The notes beneath the pieces are model-generated. The model did no database searches. It saw only the letters and a program-made list of their open reading frames with translations, and was not told where the DNA came from. Made by a program: the position numbers and the translations under genes. A stretch of 64,000 nt of DNA from Eledone cirrhosa. Lineage: Eukaryota. Below, piece by piece: positions 2,003-55,041 of this stretch (the stretch's first letter is position 1; each line of letters begins with the position of its first letter). The stretch spans positions 279,248,001 to 279,312,000 of the forward strand of contig OZ024742.1 in assembly GCA_964016885.1 (NCBI GenBank). Direction: 5' to 3'.

Positions 2003-2460
2003 CTATCTATCTACCTCTGTGTTTTTTCCTCTCTCTATATATCTCTCTCTGTTTCTTTACATGAATTTCTTCTCTCTATCTATCTCTCTATATCTATCTC
2101 TCTCTATTTAGTTGCATGCATTTCTTCTTTTTCTTCGTTTTTTCTTTCTTTCTTTTTATAACTGTCCCTAATATTTTTCACTACCAAATCAACTTTTTAA
2201 ATTGAAGTTGAAGTTGAAAGGTATGTCAAATCTATCTATTTATAAGACTGTTTATATTGTATTTTGTCTGAAGAAGGCATAACATATTTTTAATATGATA
2301 TCCCTGAAATATATATAATGAAATAAATATGGTTTTATAAATATAGTTTCCATTTATTTAATATCGTAAATATACTCCAAATACTTGTTGAGTGCTTTTA
2401 TATCAGTTATAAATATTTACTCGTTGTAACCCAACAATTTAAATAAAACTTTGCATATAT
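1229..2460 (+). repeat. 5' pseudo-LTR of the PLE
   Basis: Direct repeat of 5070-6268 with only scattered differences. Confidence 0.92.
2260..2325 (+). ncRNA. Minimal type I hammerhead ribozyme in the 5' pLTR (family A)
   Basis: Stem I TATTTTGT/ATGAAATA, core CTGAAGA, stem II AGG...CCT, GAAA, then T-ATAT-ATA (self-complementary stem III, AUA site). Confidence 0.75.
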
Positions 2461-2503
2461 CTTGCTCCAATACTGTTGAGCGCTTTATATTATAACTGAA
2501 AAA

Positions 2504-4030
2504 ATGGAATTCTTTAAGATTTCTTCCTCTTTAAAAGACATACCTCTACCTAGAAACAAAGACTTTATTAAACAATTAATAGATAAATCTGACTCTTTTA
2601 TAAGGAGAATCAGGTGGCGGGCATTCCACTTTGATAAATCTAATATAAATGCAAATGTCTCGGACTTAGACAAAGTTTTCAAATCTAAAAGAAATCCACC
2701 CCCCAACAAACTTTTATCTGACTTTGAAAACGATATAATTTCTATCATACAAGGAGTCAAATTCAAGAGAAACTTCAAAGGCCAGGAATATCTGAAAGGC
2801 ATTAAGGATAATATTGAGAGCTTAGAGAAAACTGAGAAGATCTTGGTGAAATCTGACAAGACCAACAACCTCTATGGAGTGCAAAAAGACATGTATAATG
2901 GCCTCATACTGAAAGAACTGAGGAAAAAGTACAAGGTAGCAGATAAGGCCGAGCTTGAGAAAATGAATGTTGAGGCATCTTGTATAATGCATGAGTTGGA
3001 AATTGAGAACAGAACACAACCTTTCGTGCCCAGGAAACCGAAGATCAATATGAAAGATCACAAAAGAAATTTTGAAAATGACCTGCCAGTCAGATTGATT
3101 GCACCATCAAAATCGGACCTGGGTAAACTAAGCAAAAACATTCTAGACAGGGTGATACAGCAAATTAAAAACTTGAATTGTTTACCTAACTTGAGCTTGT
3201 GGAAGGGAACTGGAGAGGTTATTGAGTGGTTTAAAGAAATTAAATATAACAATAATAATAAGTTTATTCAACTAGATATTGCTAACTATTATTCATCTAT
3301 TACCCCTAATCTACTAAATAAGGCACTAAATTACGCATTCAAACATACAGACCTAACTAGCAATGAAATGCACATTATATTATCGGCTAGGAAAACATTG
3401 ATAGAATTTAATGACCAACTATGGACCAGAGCAGATAGAGATAACAATTTCGACATTACTATGGGATCATCCGACTCAGCTCAGGTAACTGACCTTGTGG
3501 GCCTATTTTTAATCAATTCGCTGCATAGGAAAATACCCGGTGCCACCGGAGGTTTATATAGAGATGACATGCTTTTACTTATTGAAAATAATAACTCTGA
3601 ACTAAATAGAAAAAGAAAACAAATTACACAATTTTTTAATTGCTTTAATCTAAAAATAGAAATTGAGAATAACCATAGAATAGTCAATTTCCTAGATGTA
3701 ACATTAAATCTCAACACATGTCTTCACTATCCATTTCACAAGTTGAATAAAAACTTAAACTATGTCAGCTTTAACTCTAACCACCCCAGATCTGTTAAAA
3801 ATACTATAGTAAACTCTGTTCAAAAACGTATCTCTAGAATCTCATCTAATAAAAAGATTTTCGACGAAAAAGCCCAGTATTACAATGAAGCGTTAGCTAG
3901 AGCAGGATATAGTGATAAAATTATGTACATAGATAATAATAGACAAACTAACCAAAATAACAACAATTTTAATTACGGCAACAACTTTAACAACTATAAT
4001 AGAAAGCATTACAATAATTCCAAAAGCTAA
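2504..4030 (+). CDS. PLE reverse transcriptase (N-terminal, RT and thumb regions), ended by a premature in-frame TAA
   Basis: N-terminal SLKDIPLP...FIRRIRWRAFHF; RT motifs KSDKTNN, VRLIAPSKSDLGK, LDIANYYSSI, FDITMGSSDSAQVTDLVG, GLYRDD, VNFLDVTLNL; SNHP. These match Naiad/Chlamys-type PLE RTs as I recall them. Confidence 0.9.
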   Translation: MEFFKISSSLKDIPLPRNKDFIKQLIDKSDSFIRRIRWRAFHFDKSNINANVSDLDKVFKSKRNPPPNKLLSDFENDIISIIQGVKFKRNFKGQEYLKGIKDNIESLEKTEKILVKSDKTNNLYGVQKDMYNGLILKELRKKYKVADKAELEKMNVEASCIMHELEIENRTQPFVPRKPKINMKDHKRNFENDLPVRLIAPSKSDLGKLSKNILDRVIQQIKNLNCLPNLSLWKGTGEVIEWFKEIKYNNNNKFIQLDIANYYSSITPNLLNKALNYAFKHTDLTSNEMHIILSARKTLIEFNDQLWTRADRDNNFDITMGSSDSAQVTDLVGLFLINSLHRKIPGATGGLYRDDMLLLIENNNSELNRKRKQITQFFNCFNLKIEIENNHRIVNFLDVTLNLNTCLHYPFHKLNKNLNYVSFNSNHPRSVKNTIVNSVQKRISRISSNKKIFDEKAQYYNEALARAGYSDKIMYIDNNRQTNQNNNNFNYGNNFNNYNRKHYNNSKS

Positions 4031-4723
4031 AAAAGAAATAGAACTAGGAATATAATATGGTTTGCCCCCCCTTTCTCACTAAACATTGAAACCCACATCG
4101 CTAAACTATTTTTTAATGCTCTTGATAATCGCTTCCCTAGAACACATAGGTATCACTCAATTTTCAATAGACATACTATAAAATTAACCTACTCATCCAC
4201 CAAAAATTTAGCACAAAATATTAATAGAATAAATAATAGGAATTTAAAACCTAGCCAAAACACCGATAATAGCATAAATAATATCCAAATAAACAAATGT
4301 AACTGTAGAGATAGATCTAAATGTCCGTTAAATAACAATTGCTTAGTTAAAAATATAATATACAACTGTAATGTTAAAACGGACTTAAATTCTTTTAACT
4401 ATGTTGGTTCCACCTCGACAGAATTTAAACTTTGCTATAATAACCACAAGAATTCTTTCACAGATCCAAGAAAAAAATCTTTACATCACTATCAGGCTTA
4501 CTCTGGCAACTTAGGCATGATAACGTTGGATATTCAACGGCTTGGAATATAGTCTCAAGAGGGATTCCTTTTAATTCATCCTCTGAGACATGTGACCTCT
4601 GCGCCGAGGAGATATTCTTATGCTAAAATCTAAAAATTCCCTTAATTTACGGACAAATTTATTCAGTTGCTGCAGACATAGATTGAACTCAACTTTTAAA
4701 TATAAATATAAATTTAAAATGTA
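4031..4723 (+). pseudogene. Disrupted GIY-YIG endonuclease continuation of the PLE ORF
   Basis: In frame after the TAA: KRNRTRNIIWFAPPFS...CNCRDRSKCPLNNNC...NIIY...YVGSTSTEFKLCYNNHKNSF. After frameshifts near 4475 and 4612: WNIV...CDLCAEE...LNLRTNLFSCCRH. Confidence 0.85.
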
Positions 4724-5069
4724 GTATATATAATTTGATTTATAATTATTTATGAAACTCGCCGATAAATCTTTCGATTCCTTTTTTATTTTAAACATTC
4801 TTCATGAATAATTAAACTACCCTAAAAGCTGATGCTCCAAATATATCGAATAAATTTTACACTAGATAAACTTCTATATTAAATATAAGACCATCTGTAG
4901 ATCAAATGGGTATCCTAAACTTTTGGAATGATTTCTGCTAGACAGGATTTGGTAAATAATTTTGGTTTTGTTTGCTTTTGATTCTGATGCTTATAACGAA
5001 CTTGGCAATATATTGTCAATTAACTTTGAAGGGTTGATCTCTGTGGTTGATTTGCGGGGCATACTATGT

Positions 5070-5778
5070 TTTATTTTTATTTTTAATATTTTTAATATTT
5101 TTATTTTTAATATTTTTTTGTTTTTTATTTTTTTATTTTTTTATTTTTTTGTTTCTGATATTTTTATTGATATATTGATATCTGTTCTCTATTTATGTTT
5201 GAACGATAATCATGTAGTGTAAAGACAAGAATAGTATTGTTAAAATTAATGTAGACTCGATATATATTTGTGTGTATGTACACATATATGTATACTAGAA
5301 TTTTTATAGCACAATGAGAATGTTTTCGTGTGAAATAGGAATTTGCAGAGTTGATCACGTAAATTCACATGGATGTCTATAGTATCGAATCTGGGATAAC
5401 CTTCTATTTAACTCAACTCTGATATAAACCTAGGAATTTTAAACTAGACATATGATCATCATTATTTTTCACATATTATTGATACCTGTCTCATTCATGA
5501 ATACTGATATTTACATTATAATGCCTGATTTATACGAATTGATATTTTTACATTGATGAAACATAATGTTTTAAATCTGCCTCGTTTATCTCTGGATATT
5601 TTTCTTTTCTCTCTATGTAACGGCTGTTTTCTCTCCTAACCACATATATCTCTCTCTACATTAATACTAGAGCTAAATAAATAAATAAATAAATATATCA
5701 TTGATACGTCATTCAACTGGTGCCCAACTACCTATTTTCTTTCTCTCTATCTCTATCTATATCTATCTCTCTATATTT

Positions 5779-5810
<32 letters not shown>

Positions 5811-6268
5811 ATCTATCTCTGTGTTTTTTCCTCTCTCTATATATCTCTCTCTGTTTCTTTACATGAATTTCTTCTCTCTATCTATCTCTCTATATCTATC
5901 TCTCTCTAATTAGTTGCATGCATTTCTTCTTTTTCTTCGTTTTTTCTTTCTTTCTTTTTATAACTGTCCCTAATAATAATATTTTTCACTACCAAATCAA
6001 CTTTTTAAATTGAAGTTGAAGTTGAAAGGTATGTCAAATCTATCTATTTATAAGACTGTTTATATTGTATTTTGTCTGAAGAAGGCATAACATATTTTTA
6101 ATATGATATCCCTGAAATATATATAATGAAATATATATGGTTTTATAAATATTGTTTCCATTTATTTAATATTGTAAATATACTCCAAATACTTGTTGAG
6201 TGCTTTTATATCAGTTATAAATATTTACTCGTTGTAACCCAACAATTTAAATAAAGCTTTGCATATAT
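5070..6268 (+). repeat. 3' pseudo-LTR of the PLE
   Basis: Direct repeat of 1229-2460; ends at TTGCATATAT, merging into (TA)n. Confidence 0.92.
6068..6133 (+). ncRNA. Minimal type I hammerhead ribozyme in the 3' pLTR (family A)
   Basis: Same motif as 2260-2325. Confidence 0.75.
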
Positions 6269-7412: not shown

Positions 7413-7449
<37 letters not shown>

Positions 7450-40136: not shown

Positions 40137-40985
40137 GTGGTAGAACACTGGAAGGTAATATCCGTAGCGGTAGAACACTCAGTCCATGGGACGAGTTAGG
40201 TAGAAGTGGTTATACAACAGTTAGTTCACCATGCTGAGAACAATTGGTTCACCTTAGCGGATCCTCAGCTCGTAATGGATACGGTTATACGGAACAGGAA
40301 GGACAACCGTACGAACGCGCATGCGCAGAAACGATCACTTCACACAGGCAATACTAAATTGCGTGCGAGAGGTGTAAGGGAGACAACTGCGGAAGTCCGA
40401 AAGTTTCTGGTTGATAAGAAAATTAGGATGTTGTTGTAATTCAATCCGGAGCTTTGTAGTTATGTAAGAAGTGTTTCCAGATGTGTGGACAACGTATGAA
40501 GAATTCATTTCTCGTGTTTAGGTAAAATCACTATTGCGTAATCTCTTTAGAATGTTTATTCGTTCATCAATACATAGTCCACACGATGGATTGCCCCTTG
40601 CGTATGGCTTGGACTTAGTGATGGCTTTCCATTGAATGGAGTAGTCTATACCTGAGTCCTTGAGGGACCATACGTGGCTCGCGAGTTTCGTGGATGAACG
40701 TTTGTCCGGGTACCTAAAGGTCGATTGGTGGTTCAGGAAGCGTTCCTTAAATCGACCCATACATGATTTGACCTCCTGTGGCTGATTTGGTCGTTTGGAA
40801 GTGACCACAGCTTTATAAACTACAGCGGGTGTGTTGCATTGCTGTCGAAGGTGACAGGCTTCAGGCTTGCGGCAAGAGCACCCTAGTGGGGTGTTGCTCT
40901 TAGGGCTGTTGGTGATGTGAGCCTTCACGTTCTTAGCGCAATAGTATCCTAGTTTTACTTTTTGTCGGATAAAGATGGAGCGGTT
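40137..40985 (-). mobile_element. 5'-truncated Naiad-type PLE (GIY-YIG plus 3' region with degenerate HHR at ~40235-40272)
   Basis: ORF 40518-41063: CSCRKPEACHLRQQC...VVYKAVV...RFKERFLNHQSTF...LASHVWSLK...IQWK...CGLCIDER. Confidence 0.88.
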
Positions 40986-41085
40986 ATTATGACCTATGTT
41001 TTGATTATTCAATTTCAGTAGTGCTTCTAATCTATTGTAAAATTGTATTCGTTGAATAATCAACGAACCATATTAATCTTTCGTC

Positions 41086-51590: not shown

Positions 51591-51623
<33 letters not shown>

Positions 51624-51624
<1 letters not shown>

Positions 51625-52252
51625 AATTAGAAATTAGAAATTATAGGCTTTAACCGTATTTTAGACTAAAGACATTTCTAGCCTGATAGTGGGGTTTATA
51701 ACCCTCGGAGAAATGGAAAAAGATGAGTGTTGCCGTACATGGGAGTCGAACCCACATCTTTGGTTATCCAGACCACTGTGCTACCATTACACCAATACAC
51801 ATCCCGTCTCCTTCCATTCGAATTAGAAGCTATGAACTTAGCAAGTGAATGATAAACAAGCAAATTATAAATGTAAACATGTAAGTATATTTGTGAAACG
51901 GTGCGCGAGTTTGAAAATTAGAAATTAGAAATTAAATGCTTTCACCGTATTTTAGACTAAAGAAATTTCTAGCCTGATAGTGGGGTTTATAATTCTAATT
52001 CGAATGGAAGGAGACGGGATGTGTATTGGTGTAATCGTAGCACAGTGGTCTGGATAACCAAAGATGTGGGTTCGACTCCCATGTACGGCAACACTCATCT
52101 TTTTCCATTTCTCCGAGGGTTATAAACCCCACTATCAGGCTAGAAATTTCTTTAGTGTAAAATACGGTGAAAGCTTATAATTTCTAATTTCTAATTTTCA
52201 AACTCGCGCACCGTTTCAAAAACATACTTACATGTTTACATTTGTAATAGCT

Positions 52253-52255
<3 letters not shown>
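51624..52255. mobile_element. Fold-back, partially tandem ~291-bp unit with internal tRNA-like cassette, in (TA)n
   Basis: Minus-strand 1.27-mer (51624-51914 plus 51915-51992) joined to a plus-strand copy (51993-52255). Confidence 0.85.
52020..52090 (+). pseudogene. tRNA-like Pol III cassette (second copy on minus strand 51731-51801); not a credible functional tRNA
   Basis: A box TGGTGTAAT(G/C)GTAGC, anticodon-like stem TGGT/ACCA with 7-nt loop, T arm GTGGG-TTCGACT-CCCAT, weak acceptor stem, TTTTT downstream. Confidence 0.65.
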
Positions 52256-52282
<27 letters not shown>

Positions 52283-52287
<5 letters not shown>

Positions 52288-52692
52288 CTAACAAGAATCG
52301 CATTTCGGCGGGTAGAAAAGGCGAAACGAAACGCAAAAATCAGAAATAATGCTGGCAAGCGCTCCATAGTTAAAGAACCAGAGCTAAACAATATGTTAAG
52401 ACTCCATACAAAACTGAAATAGTGGTCAAGAAAGCATCAACCACCTAAGCCAAAAAGCAAATCAAGCTAAACAGGTCAAAACATATTAACATACGTCTAG
52501 TGCGCTCATCAGATAGATAACCCCTCTATCTGATGAGCGAACTAGATGTGTGTTAACATTGTTTAGGGTCCTAAAACCTTTTGTAATGGAGTAGTTATAT
52601 ATTATGTTATTGACTTGCTAATTAATAGCTCTGTTATATACATAGAGCACTCTTTTCTCTTTTGTCATTTCTTTAGAAATACTTACCTTACA
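52283..52692. mobile_element. Module with short central palindrome (52486-52556) and degenerate HHR (52525-52590), family D
   Basis: TCTAT-CTGATGA...AAAAC.CTTTT.GTA-ATGGA; tail AGCTCTGTTA...CATAGAGCACTCTTTT shared with ~61795-61830. Confidence 0.6.
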
Positions 52693-54091: not shown

Positions 54092-55041
54092 TACAGCAAC
54101 CGTGACAGTGAAATCTCACTTAGGATTAGGAAAGCAAGTGATGCTTTCGGAAAGCTAGAAAGGCGACTCTGGGGTCGGCGAGACATATGCAGGAGGACAA
54201 AGATAAAGGTGTACAAGGCATGTGTGCTCTCTTGTCTTCTTTATGTCTGCGAGACCTGGGTCACATATCGACACCCCCTTAAGCAATTGGAGCGTTTCCA
54301 TCAGATGTGTCTCAGACGGATCAATGGCGTTCACTGGAGGGACCATATCAGTGATGTCGAGATTTTGGAAAGCTCTATGTGTGACAGTATAGAAGCTCTT
54401 GTGCTTAAGCAACGACTCCGTTGGAGTGGTCACCTTGCCAGGATAAAGGATTCTAGAATACCAAAACAACTCTTTTATGGAGAGTTGGTTAAAGGAAAAC
54501 AACCGCCACATAAACCAAAAAAGAGGTATAAGGATTCCTTGAAAGCCTCTTTGAAAGACGCTAACATCTCTGGTGATACATGGGAAAATATTGCTGCTGA
54601 TCGTAATAAATGGAGAAAGACTGTATATGAGGGAAAAGTTGCCTTTGAGGCATCTCGAATCGCATACGAGAAAGTAAAGCGGGATGTGAGGAAGGGCAAT
54701 AATGTTGCACTTCCCGACGGCAAGGGTCCACCTATGGTGTTGACATGCAGCGTATGTGCGAGACTCTACCTAAGCAAAGTTGGACTCGAAAGTCATTTCG
54801 AAGTCATAAAGTAAGACCAGTGGTTGACTACCAGGCTGCTGTTGGAGATGCTACTCATCATGCTTGCCAAACATGTGGTAGAGAATGTAAATCAGCAGTA
54901 GGGCTCATGCGACATGCAAAAGTGTATGAACTCCAACCACAGCCAACTATTCTCAGTGAATGTTTTGGTTGCCGACTCTGTGCAAGACATTTTAGATCAT
55001 TGGCTGGGCTGAAAAGCCACATTCGATCGCAGCGCTGTTAG
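54092..55041 (+). mobile_element. RTE-clade LINE 3' portion with C-terminal C2H2 zinc fingers
   Basis: YKACVLSCLLYVCETW...LERFHQMCLRRI...LRWSGHLARI...RIPKQLFYGEL...KRYKDSLK; then CSVC, CQTC and CRLC fingers across a frameshift near 54790. Confidence 0.88.

Follow-up and report, generated by a model that had tools for sequence, protein, structure and literature searches.

A PLE enzyme is described as cutting both strands of AT-rich DNA and as starting cDNA at two internal sites of the RNA, the interval between the two becoming the tail (passages of PMC11167929). Partial tandems, inverted 5'-truncated copies, tails of typically 30–40 nt and a bias toward (TA)n are given as PLE hallmarks (passages of PMC8557442). 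The 291-nt repeat unit that we report here from the genome of Eledone cirrhosa resembles autonomous PLEs of the Hydra and Neptune clades in its two internal starts, tail, (TA)n targets and inverted truncated copies. Those elements, as the same passages describe them, encode a reverse transcriptase and a GIY-YIG endonuclease and carry hammerheads (PMC8557442; PMC11167929), whereas the unit encodes nothing. The Chlamys non-autonomous PLEs (MRC1) are likewise non-coding and form head-to-tail multimers with a pLTR-like permutation, and their clade, with an algal host, mostly lacks hammerheads. However, MRC1-type elements generally have 3' sequence in common with an autonomous family, and the passages on them mention no tRNA head (PMC8557442).

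Other described repeats share different parts of this composition. The SINE-like elements SM-alpha and Sj-alpha of Schistosoma have a short, permuted unit that tends to form tandems and carries an internal Pol III promoter, and an upstream copy is required to transcribe the next one; SM-alpha carries an active hammerhead, whereas the 291-nt unit lacks one and has a T5 run after its head, and the review passages on SM-alpha name neither a PLE partner nor a two-site tail (PMC6765202). Animal non-LTR retrozymes also have units of ~300 nt, from monomers to long arrays, and both PLE dependence and circular RNA have been proposed for them; as partly described in these sources, they contain a type I hammerhead, are reportedly promoterless and are often homologous to pLTRs (10.64898/2026.07.22.740005; PMC7761336). 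The unit differs from them in its tRNA-derived A/B-box head, the lack of a hammerhead and the lack of detected pLTR homology. Cassandra, Helenus and Ajax (TRIMp3) similarly carry a Pol III small-RNA gene in a non-autonomous repeat whose homology to a partner can be absent, but in the passages that treat them they belong to the LTR elements and have a PBS, a PPT and TSDs (PMC10886601), whereas the unit has a PLE signature. No description of a tRNA-headed element with a PLE signature was found in the open full-text literature; Repbase, Dfam, the repeat libraries in supplements or subscription journals may list the unit consensus already, as SINE or unknown.

The locus lies at positions 51624-52255 of the window, the whole stretch of 64,000 nt that was analysed, and consists of two arms of one unit joined head-to-head between (TA)n runs (51591-51623 on the left, 52255-52284 on the right, neither with a strand). 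With unit numbering starting at 52002 on the plus arm (u1), the inverted arm (51624-51992, minus strand) spans 369 nt, or 1.27 units, from u119 through the unit junction to u196, and the direct arm (51993-52255, plus strand) runs from u283 through u1 to about u255-259. This confirms the earlier description of a minus-strand unit that runs through its own junction and is joined to an inverted plus-strand copy. The two arms, both 5'-truncated, are 98% complementary across 205 nt and meet at 51992/51993, a point that differs from copy to copy. Each arm holds a tRNA-like cassette (u17-89): 51731-51803 on the minus strand, with the A box at 51784-51794 and the B box at 51742-51752, and 52018-52090 on the plus strand, with one A-box substitution. 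The presence of an A/B-box cassette, noted before from the letters alone, was borne out by Rfam RF00005 in both arms (38.1 and 34.5 bits; gathering threshold 29) and by an ARAGORN tRNA call on the minus-strand copy.

A long basal stem surrounds the cassette in both arms (minus, 51712-51818, where 51807-51818 pairs with 51712-51723; plus, 52003-52109, where 52003-52014 pairs with 52098-52109). The 12-bp stem with two G-U pairs that had been proposed is present, but the T5 run is located within its 3' strand (52100-52104) and not after it. Further downstream is a hairpin, H3 (52164-52214, plus strand), kept in four families with one compensatory pair. The minus arm ends 3' at a short fixed site of the family (S, u178-196), which lies inside the AU-rich loop of H3, and the plus arm at a long fixed site (T) ~65 nt beyond S, giving a PLE-type tail. 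The sequence-only reading had the ends stop at differing AT-rich points against (TA)n; they do differ and are flanked by (TA)n, but they are the two fixed sites of the family and not arbitrary stops. It had also reported neither poly(A) nor TSD: poly(A) is absent, while a TSD is unreadable because both flanks are (TA)n. Elsewhere in the window, a 40-bp fold-back hairpin with a CTGATGA core (52478-52564) is probably what is left of an old inverted pLTR. A retroelement-like ORF fragment without a Pfam match lies at 54092-54814 (+). Four window ORFs searched against Pfam gave no match.

The unit belongs to a young, non-coding, tRNA-headed family of dispersed repeats. An exact 19-mer from the unit body had 950 matches in the 3.0-Gb genome and a head motif had 275. 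With the plus arm as query, a search yielded 1,445 candidates, and 40 of these went on to scoring; the 43 matches that spanned 250 nt or more of its 263 nt were 94–100% identical. We mapped 102 loci (L001-L030, L061-L132), which resolved into 78 distinct insertions, two of them from sister families; the choice of loci by score, exact seeds or dimer pattern skews this sample toward young and long copies. In the least biased subset (27 insertions found with the exact 19-mer seed) 17 were simple head-to-head. Mean divergence from the family consensus was 1.5%, and fold-back joints were also seen in contigs of runs X1 and X2, independent of the assembly; run X4 contained just two pieces. A local tRNA array or satellite lacking dispersed copies is therefore excluded by the 78 insertions, most of them flanked by (TA)n.

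When copy starts and ends were plotted on the 291-nt circle, as had been suggested, the 3' ends fell at two fixed internal sites (121/131) and the 5' ends varied. Site T (u245-262) accounted for 74 of the 131 3' ends, 63 of them exactly at u259, and site S for 47. Simple head-to-head insertions made up 49 of the 78, with 25 single-arm and four three-piece insertions; among the 49, the ends paired as S with T in 40, T with T in two and S with S in none, and seven had one end elsewhere. TA flanks were present on both sides in 51 insertions, on one side in 23 and on neither in four (at least one side in 74/78). The 5' ends were spread round the circle, and only 4/123 lay near the head or the expected Pol III start (6.3 by chance). 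Twelve of the 123 (2.5 expected, in a window picked post hoc) formed a hot spot at u78-83, where the T-stem has its foot and a CATG palindrome lies.

The genome offers a control for this pattern. The window contains a Hydra-clade PLE (2151-6263, plus strand) whose ORF (2480-4700) encodes a reverse transcriptase-endonuclease with the motifs RWR, DKT, CxCX5C, CxxC and CxH; its reading frame is broken in this copy, and both pLTRs contain a hammerhead core. When 3' ends of its pLTR were mapped, 14/15 fell at two sites (2373/2374 and 2460), 86 nt apart and each followed by TA-rich sequence, and one head-to-head pair of short and long ends was found (L237). The family is very young: the top 83 matches were 95–100% identical in amino acids, with many open frames of 745–750 aa, and a genome-wide search for its reverse transcriptase gave 66,047 initial candidates. 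The published description of the Hydra clade, in its relevant passages, has few families outside cnidarians. A Neptune-type PLE (L304, G000:C1:147236001-147246000) has a 4.2-kb period, a 775-aa open frame and tandem copies that are 100% identical, and is apparently active now. A second PLE endonuclease fragment lies at 40521-41072 of the window (minus strand; 54,406 initial candidates).

The 291-nt family thus has two fixed internal 3' ends, partial tandems and inverted truncated copies, and a microsatellite target without discernible TSD, in a genome that holds young and intact Hydra-type and Neptune-type ORFs. The idea that PLE machinery made the insertion is strongly supported by the fixed ends, the (TA)n flanks, the head-to-head 5'-truncated arms, the multimers and the same signature in a co-resident PLE. 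On these sequence patterns the repeat is probably mobilised in trans by a (TA)n-targeting PLE reverse transcriptase/endonuclease. Against this, the S–T interval of ~65 nt is longer than the 30–40 nt that the passages on PLE tails give (PMC8557442). Neither blastn nor nhmmer detected homology between the unit and PLE sequence when ~0.65 Mb of masked loci were searched, a further 0.26 Mb of PLE loci gave none either, and no 3' homology to an autonomous partner was found in three of the genome's PLE families and flanking repeats. LTR passengers are described, in passages of PMC10886601, as mobilised in trans with no sequence homology required. Two apparent chimeras of the unit with a PLE arm were also inspected: L007 was rejected as a nested insertion within an older Neptune-type copy, and in L118 a TA run separates the parts. 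In the flanks of L001-L242, and in the window at 7413, 10804 and 18381, many distinct repeat families share a (TA)n run as their end point, and hammerhead cores are numerous in the flanks, suggesting that (TA)n tracts are nested landing pads.

Three sister families (B, C and D) were reached via diverged neighbors, and an 18-mer that they share had 5,796 exact matches; one motif pattern, with 585 matches, was chiefly from family D. Ends, inversions and run-through are as in the 291-nt family (A), with unit periods of about 259 nt in B and 270 nt in D, both from single loci. Identity between families is 84–94% in the tRNA core and 65–83% in the body, and the tRNA-like head, the long enclosing stem and three hairpins are kept in all four. 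Sister-family copies (L153-L182, L215, L228) often have no tRNA head and a common fold-back point, a CATG or ACGT palindrome on the 3' side of the head; the resulting MITE-like hairpins hardly vary in shape. In family C (L200, L201, L204, L207) a (TA)n stretch lies within the unit exactly at end site T, a hint that the original tandem unit was created when the element inserted beside its own target.

When 39 named pairs in the tRNA stems, the upper basal stem, H2 and H3 were scored across 12 real copies, 90% of cells were paired, compared to 32–48% in slid controls. Three of the 39 pairs change on both sides, including a U-A/C-G exchange in H3, a covariation score attained by 10/500 shuffles. 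The outer basal stem and H1, misaligned for family C, were judged by folding and eye only. This evidence for structure is modest because the structure was derived from the same, related sequences. Whole units folded no better than shuffles (z 0.22 and −0.23), and the head region alone folded well, on the sense strand in B, C and D (z −2.8 to −4.4; −1.6 in A). Most departures of the 5' strand of the basal stem (window 52003-52018 and its equivalents in B, C and D) from a perfect complement of the 3' strand are A-to-G changes, and these give G-U pairs on the sense RNA only. A-to-I editing as the origin of the G-U pairs was rejected, as private changes showed no A>G strand bias (4.05 vs 3.44 per 1000).

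The tRNA-like heads are not functional tRNA genes, as the anticodon varies among families (GGA, CGA or GGC); the acceptor stem is broken in family A, so that the unit has neither the conserved anticodon nor the intact cloverleaf of a functional tRNA array. A T run of at least five follows the head in 48/52 family-A contexts, and one of at least six in family C. Runs of this length are expected to terminate Pol III, so that Pol III transcripts should end before S and T, which argues against a full-length Pol III RNA. In all families the basal stem pairs past the T run, a hint that the functional RNA extends beyond it.

Two ways of processing the RNA had been put forward, by an atypical ribozyme or by tRNA-processing enzymes. 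Rfam searches found no ribozyme (window at E up to 10; five loci at E up to 1); only tRNA scored above threshold, and sub-threshold matches were mostly miRNA-hairpin models on inversions. The reported absence of a canonical CUGANGA core held, as neither a canonical nor a C3/G8-variant core occurs on the sense strand of the A, C and D stretches, and in the family B stretch hammerhead-core matches were antisense only. The type I hammerhead that each retrozyme unit carries is therefore missing, and an atypical ribozyme gains no support from these searches. A half-core in H3 (GAAA..GC/GC-UH) and an antisense CUGAUAG were rejected as not conserved. For tRNA-processing enzymes the map of 5' ends is unfavorable: they are not enriched where the tRNA starts, and their hot spot lies within the 3' acceptor/T-stem strand, not past the discriminator.

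Arms longer than one unit are common (55/135; longest 807 nt, or 2.8 units), which supports a mobilised template that was multimeric or circular, and this much of the proposal of a circular or multimeric RNA is likely. The circle itself, a covalently closed 291-nt RNA that would be made with no ribozyme (e.g., by ligating enzymes or those of tRNA processing) and would serve as template for rolling-circle reverse transcription, we put at somewhat below an even chance. In its favor is allele concordance within insertions, which is nearly complete across units and both arms (25/27 at u14, 42/44 at u239, 28/30 at u44 and 28/29 at u50) and alike in tandem and inverted pairs, while the alleles at u14 and u239 are near 50:50 in the whole family. 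Private variants are also shared in excess, 17 of them in tandem pairs (2.5 expected) and 13 in inverted pairs (4.1 expected). In addition, there is no fixed 5' end at the head, each family holds its own exact period, and the sole large array found is not the source (see below). Against a circle are the lack of any ribozyme found, the circular fold of family A, which is less stable than the linear one, and the tandems that ribozyme-less PLEs and MRC1 form likewise, according to passages of PMC8557442. Mosaic insertions (L011, L123, L126), with some variants in only part of their units, are less easily explained by a single circle than by multimers of mixed composition or by later conversion, and later gene conversion can also be a source of variant sharing. 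Allele concordance, as read from the copies, favors a unit-length bottleneck: each round truncates the arms, so that multimers uniform in their nested subfamily alleles would need re-multimerisation from a unit-length template. A circle would suffice for this, but precise template re-use or homogenised tandem sources would be equally able to provide it.

A tandem tRNA-gene satellite could instead be the master, with the dispersed copies as retrotransposed read-through transcripts or DNA-level offshoots. There is indeed a pure array of a 290-bp unit, ~276 kb long and spotted by its dimer pattern (G000:C28:19,440,620-19,716,550; L134-L141, L149-L151). Eleven sampled stretches of 10 kb hold tandem units in the same orientation, nine of them over their full length, and nine flanking stretches hold no units apart from one 31-nt chance match; the array would comprise ~950 units, assuming that the stretches between samples are uninterrupted. 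However, the alleles T85, A137 and T142, typical of 92–98% of array units, are seen in only 1%, 4% and <2% of the segments aligned from dispersed copies, the units at the array edges retain the dispersed allele state, and the 5' end of the array is a truncated copy abutting (TA)n. These features identify the array as a product and not a master, and the family-specific anticodons also speak against tRNA genes as the source, so that we consider a satellite master very unlikely. At its 3' end the array is interrupted by an ORF, which is presumably Helitron-like.

An ordinary LINE-dependent SINE, with inversions from twin priming in (TA)n, is hardly probable. The tRNA-derived head does have the A and B boxes of a canonical SINE, the B box being canonical in A, B and D and degenerate in C, and the AT-rich S and T could pair with a TA target. 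But the copies have no tail and no head-anchored 5' ends or full-length copies, which also disposes of the possibility that all copies start at the tRNA head with normal tails and TSDs, and the arms cross the unit junction. Twin priming on one linear RNA predicts T arms that stop just past S, and this was seen in 6/40 cases compared to 5.6 by chance; no T arm was 85 nt or shorter, and the T arm always runs through S. A MITE, or a DNA transposon of the rolling-circle type, bounded by terminal inverted repeats at TA would explain the inverted arms, the TA flanks and the fold-back point common to some sister-family copies, but it is barely credible given that the outer ends are two different sites, the inner junction is variable, and 25/78 insertions are single-arm with graded 5' truncation.

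We therefore return to PLE mobilisation. Tandem copies would be transcribed, most likely by Pol III, which would start from the internal promoter of the upstream unit and leak through the T5 run, or else by read-through of host Pol II, the two being about evenly balanced. The RNA would pass a unit-length bottleneck, possibly, if with rather less than even probability, as a circle copied repeatedly, or else by exact template re-use by the PLE enzyme. A PLE enzyme dimer would then nick both (TA)n strands and start cDNA at two internal sites, S in the H3 loop and T ~65 nt further on. Each cDNA would extend 0.2–2.8 units upstream, with frequent stalls at the base of the tRNA T-arm, after which both would be joined head-to-head via short microhomologies. 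One such insertion would later have expanded to the 276-kb satellite.

As far as the sequences allow a verdict, the 291-nt repeat is a ribozyme-less, tRNA-headed, non-autonomous PLE passenger, ordinary in the class of its mechanism and unusual in its composition. More tentatively, it could represent a ribozyme-free class of circular-RNA retroelements, a doubtful proposition at present, in which a captured tRNA gene would serve as promoter and/or processing signal, the unit RNA would circularise and a PLE enzyme would carry out rolling-circle reverse transcription from two sites. If true, this class would be the PLE counterpart of SINEs and of Cassandra, Helenus and Ajax. LINEs have known passengers with a small-RNA gene in the SINEs, and LTR elements have them in Cassandra, Helenus and Ajax; for a passenger with the PLE insertion signature, the nearest case in the literature covered is SM-alpha. 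Automatic pipelines would probably label such repeats tRNA, SINE or unknown. With a length of 291 nt, no ribozyme, thousands of copies and two mapped starts, the passenger offers a minimal substrate for the question of how PLEs recognize RNA, and it bears on the origin of hammerhead-free PLE tandems and on whether circles are true intermediates. The array on contig C28, in turn, documents a satellite born of a PLE-type insertion.
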